Below, piece after piece: positions 61,462-64,000 of a DNA stretch of 64,000 nt. The notes under the pieces were generated by a model, which was not told the origin of the DNA, did no database searches, and worked only from the letters and a program-made list of their open reading frames with translations. The position numbers and the translations under genes are program-made. The DNA is from a phage. Positions within the stretch are counted from its first letter, which is position 1; each line of letters opens with the position of its first letter. The stretch lies in the sequence record PX880100.1, one strand, 5' to 3'.

Positions 61462-62163
61462 ATGAAAGTAAAACCATTTGGTATGCTAGATATTGAATCT
61501 CTGGGAACTCCAGGAGATTGTGGTACTACTCATATCGCAATGCCTTCTTTCGCTTTTGTGGCTATGCATGGAATTGATAAAGACCCTGATCTAATATTTG
61601 TTACTTTGGATGTACAAGATCAGCTTAATTCTGGTGCCAAAGTTACAGCATCTACTCTAGCATTCTGGATGGATCAAGCTAAAAATAGCCCGTCTGCTAT
61701 CCACATTATGGAAGCTATGAAGGAACGTAATCCAAAACTGATTGCCTTCCAAAATGGTAAACATCATTGCACTAATAAACTCGGCTCTAACTATGCTGCC
61801 TACTCTATGGCTAAAAATATTATGGAGTTGGCTTTAGGCGAAAATGCTTTGTATTATGGCAACGGTCCAGAGTTTGATATGACTATCTACTCTGCAAACA
61901 CGTTCCATGCTGGAACCAATGAAGAGGTAGTTCCGTGGAAATTCTGGAATTTGGGTAATGTTCGATCTCTTCGTAACCTCTGGATGCAAGCTGGATACAG
62001 TTATAAAGCTCTAGAGACCGAAGGTATTAGCTGGGCAATAGCTAAAATGGAGAAGATGGACACCATTCGTTATGGGATCTATCCGGTTAAGCACGACCCA
62101 GCATTTGATGCCTTAGTTGAAAGCTATTGTGTTGCAGCTATGATCGAAAAAATGAAAATTTGA
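61462..62163 (+). CDS. putative DEDDh-type 3'-5' exonuclease (233 aa)
   Basis: N-terminal Exo I-like MLDIESLGT and C-terminal Exo III-like H-x4-D (VKHDPAFDALVESY); the middle motif was not identified. Confidence 0.4.
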   Translation: MKVKPFGMLDIESLGTPGDCGTTHIAMPSFAFVAMHGIDKDPDLIFVTLDVQDQLNSGAKVTASTLAFWMDQAKNSPSAIHIMEAMKERNPKLIAFQNGKHHCTNKLGSNYAAYSMAKNIMELALGENALYYGNGPEFDMTIYSANTFHAGTNEEVVPWKFWNLGNVRSLRNLWMQAGYSYKALETEGISWAIAKMEKMDTIRYGIYPVKHDPAFDALVESYCVAAMIEKMKI

Positions 62164-62233: not shown

Positions 62234-62416
62234 ATGCCAGTATCTAAAAATGTTCGTAAAAATGGTAAGAAAGCTACTCGTAATCTGGGTATCCGTCGTA
62301 TGGCTGAACGTCAATCAGGTGTCCAGAAAATCTTTGATCTGCTAAATCGTGCTAATCCTAAAATTGATAACAGTAAAGATACTGTTCTGCGTACCTTACT
62401 GGCAATGGGTCTGTAA
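62234..62416 (+). CDS. small basic protein (60 aa)
   Basis: Lys/Arg-rich N-terminus; host-optimised codons; own promoter. Confidence 0.35.
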   Translation: MPVSKNVRKNGKKATRNLGIRRMAERQSGVQKIFDLLNRANPKIDNSKDTVLRTLLAMGL

Positions 62417-62468
62417 TAGACCAACTTTAAACAAATTCAAATCTTAAACTTCATATAAGGAAGAAACA

Positions 62469-63107
62469 ATGACCACTCGTATTTCTAAAACTCGTGCTCT
62501 GGCAACCATCAAATCTCTGGAAGCTAAAATCCGTAAAGCTACTGAACAACAGCTTCTGATCGCTGTTGGTGAAGGTAAGGATAAAAACCAGGTTGTAGTT
62601 GGCGCTGCAATCGAAGTAGCTGATCTGTCTACTCGTATTAAGACTGATTTCCAGTCTCTGCTGGATATGATGTCCCAGCGCGATCGTATCAAAGCTGCTC
62701 TGATTAAAAGCAATGCGGAAACAATCGTTGAGATTGGCTCTCGTAAGATGACTGTTGCGGAAGCAATTGAAGCTAAGCGTTCTATGGAACTTAAAGCTCA
62801 ACTGCTGGCTAACATGCGTAAGCAGTTCCATGCCGCTACAGTTAAGTTTAATGCGCAGAAAGCACAGTTTGATGCTAAATATGAGCGTTTGCAGGATAGC
62901 ATGGCTACCCGCGATAAGAAAACTTCCGAAGATGAAGTTAAAATGCAGCTCAACCTGCTGGAACTCAAGAATACTCCATTCTTGATTGATCCGCTGGAAC
63001 TGGAGAAGCTGATTAAGCAGCATGACGAGGAATACCAGGACTTTGCAACAAATGTTGACTTTGTTCTGTCCGAGTCTAACGCCTCTACCTTCATTGAAGT
63101 AGAGTAA
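62469..63107 (+). CDS. hypothetical alpha-helical protein (212 aa) with host-optimised codon usage
   Basis: RBS AAGGAAGAAAC before ATG 62469; helix-rich sequence; cgt/ctg-dominated codons. Confidence 0.45.
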   Translation: MTTRISKTRALATIKSLEAKIRKATEQQLLIAVGEGKDKNQVVVGAAIEVADLSTRIKTDFQSLLDMMSQRDRIKAALIKSNAETIVEIGSRKMTVAEAIEAKRSMELKAQLLANMRKQFHAATVKFNAQKAQFDAKYERLQDSMATRDKKTSEDEVKMQLNLLELKNTPFLIDPLELEKLIKQHDEEYQDFATNVDFVLSESNASTFIEVE

Positions 63108-63490
63108 TAATTTAAAAGCTAGTAAATCGGTAGACGAAAGCCCAAGCATCTTACCTCGCAGCAGCGGTTGAAATACGAGGTTAAATAAGACCGCTGACCA
63201 TACTATAAAGTATAATCTATTGGAGATTATGTTTATTACACCAGCCTTTTAAGCTGACACGTAAGAACAAAGCGTCGTTGATATTACCGACACAACTTCA
63301 AAGATCAACATTTAAGTATGAAAGCTGAAAAGTTTAAAGAACTCAAACTTCTAAACTTCTAAAGCTAAAAGATGCAAAGTATTCGTTGATGATTCAAACC
63401 CTAGATCAAAGGTACATGGCTCATAAGATATGGCCTGTGGCGCCTCTAGGCTGTTTATCGGTTTACTAGTTTCACAATTTAAAAATGTAT

Positions 63491-63519
63491 TTGCTAATTT
63501 ATTAAGTTATCTGTATAAT
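63491..63519 (+). promoter_or_regulatory. sigma70-type promoter
   Basis: TTGCTA, 17-bp spacer, extended -10 TGTATAAT; RBS-like GAGG before ATG 63550. Confidence 0.6.
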
Positions 63520-63549
63520 ATATTTTTAAATTGATGAAACGAGGCTATT

Positions 63550-63867
63550 ATGACTTTTCATATTTTGATTGATGATGTGCGTAATCTTCACGGAATGGAC
63601 ATTATCATTCGAACCCCAGAAGCCGCTGTAGAGTTTCTGAATAAAACTGATACCACCGGCCATTTCGTTTATATGGATAATGACTTGGCTGTAGATGGTA
63701 TGGAAGGTTATCAAATTCTTCGTTTACTCTTAGAATTTGGGCAGAGACCAAAGAAAGTGGTACTAGTAACCTCGAACCCAGTAGCTAAGCAAAATATGCG
63801 TAATGATTTGCTTGACTTAGGGTATAAAGAAAATCCCAATCGTGTTGAATATGATTGGCAGGAGTAA
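63550..63867 (+). CDS. hypothetical protein (105 aa), possible receiver (CheY-like) fold
   Basis: Spacing of ILIDDV (acidic pair), FVYMDNDLAVDGMEGYQIL (candidate phospho-acceptor Asp) and KVVLVTSNP (Thr/Ser) mimics a response-regulator receiver domain; no output domain. Confidence 0.3.
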   Translation: MTFHILIDDVRNLHGMDIIIRTPEAAVEFLNKTDTTGHFVYMDNDLAVDGMEGYQILRLLLEFGQRPKKVVLVTSNPVAKQNMRNDLLDLGYKENPNRVEYDWQE

Positions 63868-63872
63868 AAAGA

Positions 63873-64000
63873 ATGAAGGCAGCTTTGCTTTTAGTAGCTG
63901 CCCTTACCTTCAGCTTTAGTAGTCAGGCATCGCACGATGCAAAAGAAATAGATTGCATTGCTAAAAATATCTATTTCGAAAGTCGTGGTGAGGGCATAAA
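63873..64000 (+). CDS. secreted cell-wall hydrolase-like protein, 3'-truncated by the window
   Basis: Signal-peptide-like N-terminus (MKAALLLVAALTFSFSSQAS) followed by CIAKNIYFESRGEG, which resembles the start of SleB-type hydrolase domains; only 42 codons are visible. Confidence 0.35.
   Translation, partial: MKAALLLVAALTFSFSSQASHDAKEIDCIAKNIYFESRGEGI

Follow-up and report, generated by a model that had tools for sequence, protein, structure and literature searches.

A stand-alone cREC protein in the early region of a T5-like phage: receiver-like fold and candidate role as a phosphoesterase

Is a phage protein that carries the phospho-site residues of a response-regulator receiver kept for signalling or for chemistry? 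The question is raised by a gene for a protein of 105 amino acids (aa) at positions 63550-63867 of phage sequence record PX880100.1, a stretch of 64,000 nucleotides (nt) that is called here the window. The initial annotation had reported an open reading frame (ORF) of this size, which is present exactly as described, and had proposed that its product, a receiver-like protein lacking an output domain, could serve to draw off phosphate or act as a decoy in the two-component signalling of the host. We find that the protein belongs to the cREC family, and the most economical reading of its conserved site would be that the receiver phospho-site has been kept for chemistry and not for signalling. 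Publications already cover the family, the relationship of its fold, and the role predicted for it, and public databases already assign this very protein to cREC.

Family membership, conserved residues and predicted fold

In searches against Pfam, residues 4-87 of the protein align with positions 2-86 of the 88 positions of PF20274 (cREC_REC), with a score of 56.8 bits (cutoff 27) and an E-value of 3.8e-15. The profile of canonical receivers, PF00072 (Response_reg), fails on the same protein, which scores 12.5 bits (E-value 0.17), under the cutoff of 30.2. PHROG 1479, to which no function has been assigned, also matches (E-value 3.8e-30), and scans of the protein with PADLOC and NCBIfam gave no match. 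UniRef and some recent GenBank records name it [quoted passage not shown]; the description of an orphan receiver with no output domain stands for T5, but the protein was already annotated as cREC in these records. The computational definition of the family goes back to Iyer, Anantharaman, Krishnan, Burroughs and Aravind (Viruses 2021, PMC7824862; Viruses 2022, PMC9503650), who noted that cREC never accompanies histidine kinases, linked it to RNA ligases and to genes processing NAD+ and ADP-ribose (ADPr), and predicted that it resolves 2',3'- or 1''-2''-cyclic phosphates.

Members of the family are common across large phages. Among 1.84 billion representative proteins, a profile search returned 427 cREC clusters at E-values of 1e-3 or below, mostly stand-alone proteins of about 100 aa, and a word-indexed search with a diverse profile returned 2,535 clusters at 90% identity, with PF20274 on all of those listed. 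Phages of Escherichia coli, Vibrio, Enterococcus, Bacillus, Streptomyces, Microbacterium, Gordonia, Ochrobactrum, and Serratia encode homologues that have these same residues of the site. The window protein itself was found by tblastn in 494 phage records, with 100% identity in many T5-like phages and 96.2% in T5, and essentially every T5-like phage in the collection encodes a member of the family.

The following positions, numbered as in the window protein, stand out in an alignment of 153 representatives of the family:

D8, 150 of 153: acidic pair, at the C-terminal end of beta1
D9, 150 of 153: acidic pair, at the C-terminal end of beta1
R11, 144 of 153: family-specific arginine
D17, 131 of 153
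R21, 149 of 153: family-specific arginine, at the C-terminal end of beta2 (strand 18-20)
D43, 152 of 153: equivalent of the receiver phospho-aspartate and predicted nucleophile, at the end of strand 39-42
D45, 152 of 153: position D+2, which makes a DxD motif
G47, 142 of 153: alanine in the window protein
G53, 152 of 153
P67, 145 of 153
T/S74, 152 of 153: equivalent of CheY T87
N76, 150 of 153: position T+2, family-specific
Y92, 138 of 153

Position 44 is H or N in the family. The corresponding codons lie in the window as follows:

63571-63582, plus strand: D8, D9, V10, and R11
63610-63612, plus strand: R21
63676-63684, plus strand: D43-N44-D45
63769-63777, plus strand: T74-S75-N76

To relate these positions to a canonical receiver, the family was aligned by hhalign with the single CheY sequence, a weak alignment (probability 1.3%) that was taken for the register only, and which places VVLVTSN on CheY VLMVTAE, G53 on G65, T74 on T87, and G91-Y92 on G105-Y106. 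In this register, CheY K109 is matched with column 95, where the residues vary (K 22, N 21, S 15, I 15). The conservation counts and the hhalign register together indicate that the receiver phospho-site (the acidic pair, the aspartate, and the threonine) has been kept and the lysine lost. R11, R21, D45, and N76 are also near-invariant and lie outside the receiver signature; they are additions specific to the family. The receiver-like residue spacing read in the initial annotation is borne out at all four of its positions, D8, D9, D43, and T/S74.

A structure prediction with AlphaFold2 (15 homologues) was confident, with a mean predicted local distance difference test (pLDDT) of 91.8 and a predicted template modelling score (pTM) of 0.85. 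In this model, cREC has a receiver-like Rossmannoid fold that keeps the predicted catalytic aspartates. Both points on which the initial annotation could have failed thus turned out in its favour, the fold being predicted as that of a receiver and the candidate aspartate, D43, being conserved. According to DSSP, the model has beta1 at residues 4-7, strand beta2 at 18-20, a further strand at 39-42, and a helix at 77-90. The place of the canonical alpha1, between beta1 and beta2, is taken by a 10-residue loop (8-17) free of helix, and the model shows no further helix after the one at 77-90, where the canonical alpha5 would lie. As modelled, cREC is a stripped-down receiver and falls short of the complete (beta/alpha)5 fold.

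Foldseek against the Protein Data Bank (PDB) agreed weakly, with receiver matches of which the best had an E-value of 3.5e-3, and the best structural matches in BFVD were viral proteins that also bear the name "cyclic-phosphate processing receiver". No solved cREC structure turned up in profile searches of PDB sequences: family profile A1 gave weak matches to resolvases (E-values above 0.2). Matches of profile A2 to TAL effectors in the same PDB sequences reached 3e-9 and were rejected as an artefact, the score being a sum over repeats each with an E-value above 100; the repeats "P.QVVAIASN.GGKQALE" align with "PkkVvLVTSNPVGrkrM" at a few bits each, and there is no homology.

The gene and its neighbourhoods

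The window comes from a T5-like phage (Tequintavirus), and its final 1.6 kb are 98.6-98.9% identical to ECOP18, AKFV33, and similar genomes. The features around cREC are the following:

63550-63867, plus strand: cREC coding sequence, single domain, ATG start, 105 aa; orthologue of T5.084 and AKFV33 orf082
63541-63544, plus strand: Shine-Dalgarno sequence GAGG, 5 nt before the cREC ATG, read from the sequence
63491-63519, plus strand: sigma-70 promoter of T5 type, with the -35 hexamer TTGCTA at 63491-63496, a 17-nt spacer, and the -10 hexamer TATAAT at 63514-63519
63873-64000, plus strand: start of the downstream gene, orthologue of T5.083 and AKFV33 orf081, which encodes a SleB-like hydrolase of the cell wall with a signal peptide and continues past the window end
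61462-62163, plus strand: Rv2179c-like DEDD 3'-5' exoribonuclease, orthologue of T5.087, three genes upstream of cREC (PF16473, 33.7 bits, cutoff 27)

A sigma-70 scan matched the cREC promoter at 10 of the 12 consensus positions, and the sequence upstream of it is A/T-rich. An A directly after the -10 hexamer fits the T5 consensus TTGCTT-N17-18-TATAATA that is quoted in the AKFV33 record. The T5 and AKFV33 records label the cREC orthologue as hypothetical, and both annotate a promoter at the corresponding place ahead of the gene. The initial annotation had proposed a strong early promoter; judged from its sequence context, cREC has a T5-type promoter of its own, from which it is expressed in the early region. 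The label "early" follows from where the gene lies in T5, in the early region with genes of nucleotide metabolism on one side and the tRNA block on the other. Between the window and the T5 gene, 13 synonymous and 5 non-synonymous differences were counted (dN/dS, the ratio of non-synonymous to synonymous rates, 0.089), and by this sequence comparison cREC is a real gene under purifying selection and no chance ORF. The SleB-like gene, whose AKFV33 orthologue matches Pfam Hydrolase_2 with an E-value of 2.2e-25, begins 5 nt after the cREC stop. Because of this short gap and because a terminator scan of positions 62400-64000 found none, the two genes are probably co-transcribed.

In T5-like phages, the order of genes is the Rv2179c-like exoribonuclease (T5.087), two proteins without assigned function, the promoter, cREC, and the SleB-like hydrolase, followed by a second promoter, DUF7616, a YqeY-like protein, and then RNAX and a tRNA-Arg. 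The T5 tRNA block, which extends over 13 kb, begins about 1.9 kb downstream of cREC.

Several labels in this region deserve correction or caution. For orthologues of T5.087, the records of AKFV33, bux, and My1 give "putative metallopeptidase" and the RefSeq record of T5 gives "exonuclease"; Pfam favours an Rv2179c-like DEDD exoribonuclease. In the RefSeq record of T5 and in those of several relatives, the T5.085 orthologue (window 62469-63107, 212 aa) carries the name "tail fiber protein". This looks like a propagated annotation error: Pfam gave no match for the protein, and its gene is part of the early region and is encoded on the early strand. An antisense ORF at 62451-63149 (232 aa) that overlaps it is probably spurious. 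The 440 nt between the T5.085 orthologue and cREC (window 63108-63549) hold no credible ORF and carry the promoter at their 3' end; Rfam and tRNA scans of this gap and of the whole window gave nothing credible.

The cREC locus is also a hotspot of homing endonucleases, with allelic replacement in T5-like phages and identity that drops sharply at ORF edges. Salmonella phage bux (locus L017, 1985-2806) encodes a 273-aa HNH_3::cREC fusion whose cREC part is 50% identical to the window protein; its DNA is 88% identical to the window up to the cREC ATG (63552), loses this identity across the ORF, and regains it near 63828. The space equivalent to the 440-nt gap holds the HNH part of the fusion, for which a tblastn search against the window gave no significant match. 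In E. coli phage SUT_E1620 (locus L018, 2501-3347), an identity of 86.5% ends about 70 nt into the ORF, the cREC protein has 57% identity to that of the window, and an inserted HNH_3 gene of 174 aa separates cREC from the SleB-like gene. HNH/NUMOD3 and GIY-YIG genes flank cREC in KVP40-like phages.

We sampled the contexts of cREC in 17 phage lineages (T5 and 16 others), using tblastn on annotated phages and a search for cREC-encoding contigs; this is a sample and no test of enrichment. tRNA genes lie within about 6 kb of cREC in six of the 17 lineages, and a gene for an RNA ligase, Pnkp, or a 2H protein is found in five. One or both of these traits are seen in nine, of which T5 shows only the tRNA-cluster part. 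No histidine kinase or Hpt gene was found near cREC in any of the 17 neighbourhoods inspected. The gene lies about 2 kb from the tRNA cluster in KVP40-like Vibrio phages, within the tRNA cluster in Enterococcus phage H1, and within a tRNA/tmRNA cluster in Streptomyces phage Sushi23, where an RNA ligase gene and one for a full-length Pnkp lie 2.6-4.5 kb downstream. In Microbacterium phage Cece, tRNA genes and an RNA ligase gene are followed by cREC in two tandem copies, by an ADP-ribosylglycohydrolase (ARH) gene, and by RtcB. Ochrobactrum phage OC has an operon in the order HAD_PNKP, cREC, Rnl1, and kinase, with macro-domain and NadR/PnuC genes within 5 kb, and Serratia phage BF has the order NAMPT, Acb1-like 2H, Sir2, and a fusion of a Nudt16-like Nudix domain to cREC. 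tRNAs flank cREC on both sides in a metagenomic jumbo contig, and an RNA ligase lies 3 kb from it in a second metagenomic contig.

Some features of these neighbourhoods are of interest in themselves. The tandem genes 154 and 155 of Cece (locus L008, 5580-6219) are overlapping cREC paralogues that score 49 and 73 bits on PF20274. BF gp110 (locus L023, 1931-2377) is annotated as "RNA ligase" and matches the Acb1 anti-CBASS 2H phosphodiesterase family at 56.4 bits. A role of cREC as a substitute for the Pnkp 3'-phosphatase domain in RNA-repair operons was considered and rejected for phage OC, in which HAD_PNKP adjoins cREC. DEDD exonuclease genes are present within 3 kb of cREC also in Sushi23 and at loci L009 and L010. 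A DUF2828/DUF7788 (vWA-type) protein is encoded 1-1.7 kb downstream of cREC in Vibrio phage VH1_2019 (L002, 6966-8405) and in Enterococcus phage H1 (L020, 5356-6852), two phages of unrelated families, in both cases within or beside a tRNA cluster; this arrangement may represent a conserved functional pairing. Cell-envelope hydrolases of unrelated families adjoin cREC in three of the 17 lineages, which could be coincidence: the SleB-like protein of T5-like phages, an NlpC/P60 protein directly upstream in Sushi23 (L007, 5525-5983), and a poly-gamma-glutamate (PGA) hydrolase two genes upstream in the Bastille-like phage f2b1 (L005, 5016-5630).

Candidate functions

With family membership and fold in hand, we infer the catalysis, the roles of the residues, and the substrate. 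The conserved residues suggest, with about an even chance in our estimate, that cREC is an Asp-nucleophile phosphoesterase which acts on cyclic or terminal phosphates of RNA (tRNA) 3' ends; Iyer et al. had put forward this function in 2021 and 2022 (PMC7824862, PMC9503650). In the proposed mechanism, D8 and D9 would hold a divalent metal and D43 would attack the substrate phosphate to form an acyl-phosphate. D45 would take the role of general acid/base that the Asp at D+2 has in DxDxT acylphosphatases. One of these, the phosphatase domain of T4 Pnkp, is a phage precedent and heals RNA 2',3'-cyclic phosphate ends via an Asp-phosphate intermediate (PMC3592404). T74 and N76 would position the phosphate or a water molecule, and R11 and R21 would bind further substrate phosphates; the presence of two invariant arginines suggests a substrate with more than one phosphate, either an RNA end or a nucleotide. 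The same residues recur in phages whose hosts are very different, which points to a universal substrate and not to a host-specific kinase. Processing of RNA (tRNA) 3' ends is favoured because the T5 copy lies at the edge of the tRNA block and near a 3'-5' exoribonuclease. The substrates could be RNA 3'-end phosphates, for example on tRNA fragments left by metal-independent host nucleases, and cREC might in this way contribute to the maintenance of phage tRNAs or to counter-defence. Since T5 has no recognisable RNA ligase, cREC would need host enzymes or the nearby 3'-5' exoribonuclease.

Several points weigh against this reading. Among the ORFs of the T5 tRNA region that were tested, no RNA ligase, Pnkp, Sir2, or HAD protein was found, and eight of the 17 neighbourhoods contain only small early genes without assigned function. 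Proximity to tRNA genes is suggestive at most, since the early regions of phages collect small accessory genes as well as clusters of tRNA genes. The HAD 3'-phosphatase encoded beside cREC in phage OC implies that cREC must add something beyond that step. Iyer et al. call the site metal-independent, as opposed to the Mg-dependent mechanism considered here, and state that the family is experimentally uncharacterised (Iyer et al. 2022, PMC9503650); a literature search on PF20274, T5.084, and experiments with phage receiver-like proteins retrieved nothing beyond their two papers.

The main rival to the RNA-end reading keeps the fold and the chemistry and changes the substrate. cREC would then act on a soluble, nucleotide-derived molecule, as an anti-signalling counter-defence enzyme or as a binding sponge, candidates being ADP-ribose 1''-2'' cyclic phosphate, immune signals of the cyclic ADP-ribose (cADPR) type or made of cyclic (oligo)nucleotides, and 2',3'-cyclic nucleoside monophosphates (2',3'-cNMPs). 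This explanation, which we regard as a minority prospect that deserves to be taken seriously, draws on the tie between cREC and NAD+/ADPr genes made by Iyer et al., who propose cADPr or Appr>p (PMC7824862, PMC9503650), and on the genes that accompany cREC in phage BF (NAMPT, the Acb1-like 2H phosphodiesterase, Sir2, and the Nudix part of the fusion), in phage OC (the macro domain and NadR/PnuC), and in Cece (the ADP-ribosylglycohydrolase); like many anti-defence proteins, cREC is also small and early. T5, however, has no NAD/ADPr genes beside cREC, PADLOC gave no match, and adjacency to tRNA clusters, seen in six lineages, is at least as frequent as adjacency to NAD/ADPr genes.

The other two explanations dispense with catalysis of this kind. 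cREC could be a non-catalytic pseudo-receiver, a small binding or regulatory subunit whose acidic pocket serves as a metal or ligand switch; its target might be the SleB-like hydrolase or some other protein of the phage or of the host. The loss of alpha1 and alpha5 in the model may leave a face of the sheet open for protein contact, the gene for the secreted hydrolase begins 5 nt away, and hydrolases adjoin cREC in Sushi23 and f2b1 too. These hydrolases nevertheless come from unrelated families and from only three of the 17 lineages, the known fusions are to enzymes (Nudix) or homing HNH modules and not to regulators, and eight near-invariant polar residues shared from Enterococcus to E. coli phages are typical of an enzyme site, so that we consider the pseudo-receiver improbable. 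The proposal of the initial annotation, a single-domain receiver phosphorylated by host histidine kinases or by acetyl phosphate that would drain or decoy two-component signalling of the host, can appeal to the receiver fold, the conserved acidic pair, aspartate, and threonine positions, the lack of an output domain, and early expression. In kinase-regulator complexes, alpha1 is the main surface on which kinases and Hpt proteins dock, and the model has no helix at this position or at that of alpha5. An Asp at D+2, conserved in cREC, would be expected to favour rapid hydrolysis in the autodephosphorylation of a receiver. Moreover, the protein fails PF00072, the lysine is not conserved, the additional near-invariant residues are kept in phages of very different hosts, and cREC is never found with a histidine kinase, either in the 17 contexts sampled here or by Iyer et al. 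(PMC7824862, PMC9503650). The decoy is therefore very improbable; the idea is not supported and should be dropped in favour of the existing cREC annotation, even though the fold call behind it was right.

In a bolder reading, which we rate as less likely than not, T5.084 would be the first receiver fold proven to be a true enzyme and not a phospho-switch. As a minimal Asp-nucleophile phosphoesterase, it would open or remove cyclic or terminal phosphates, either those of tRNAs that have been cleaved or those of immune or stress signals of the cyclic-phosphate kind. A phage without an RNA ligase of its own could then blunt host defences that cleave tRNA or other RNA, and the 3' ends might become accessible to the Rv2179c-like exoribonuclease and to host repair or CCA-adding enzymes. 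A specific functional prediction has been published for cREC. As a model phage, T5 is tractable and can be engineered with existing tools; its stand-alone protein of 105 aa offers a convenient entry to the question whether a receiver fold was converted into a phosphoesterase that processes RNA ends or nucleotides in the conflict between phage and host.

Comparison with known systems

The closest likeness is with the cREC family itself. The T5-clade protein scores above the PF20274 threshold, has the same Asp residues, and is, like its relatives, a phage-borne stand-alone protein of about 100 aa that comes with no histidine kinase; nothing structural sets it apart. These relatives are found in RNA-repair and NAD/ADPr neighbourhoods, whereas T5, compared with other cREC phages, lacks RNA-ligase, Sir2, and Nudix partners. 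In sequence, the T5 clade departs from the family by A47 in place of G, by N44 in place of the commoner H, and by D102 where most members have R or K.

With CheY-like receivers (PF00072), cREC shares the acidic pair, the phospho-Asp, and the equivalent of the Thr, as well as G91-Y92 on CheY G105-Y106, the latter in a weak register. It differs from them in that it stays below the threshold of their profile, has a loop of 10 residues for alpha1 and no alpha5, does not conserve the Lys, adds R11, R21, D45, and N76, and has neither a kinase partner nor an output domain.

Two phosphate-processing systems of other folds offer functional parallels. The 2H phosphoesterases (LigT, Acb1-like) would carry out the same reaction that Iyer et al. 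propose for cREC, the opening of 2',3'- or 1''-2''-cyclic phosphates (PMC9503650), and an Acb1-like 2H gene lies near the Nudix::cREC fusion in phage BF. Their fold is unrelated, and their catalytic residues are those of two HxT/S motifs, as opposed to the Asp of cREC. The C-terminal DxDxT (HAD) domain of T4 Pnkp resembles cREC in its Rossmann-like fold and in the DxD at the end of a central strand, and belongs to a phage enzyme that heals RNA ends bearing a 2',3'-cyclic phosphate or a 3'-phosphate through a covalent Asp-phosphate (PMC3592404); in phage OC, cREC sits between a neighbour of this type, HAD_PNKP, and Rnl1. Because the nucleophile lies on beta1 in HAD proteins and on beta3 in cREC, cREC falls outside the HAD group, and the resemblance to T4 Pnkp may point to a shared way of working rather than to membership.

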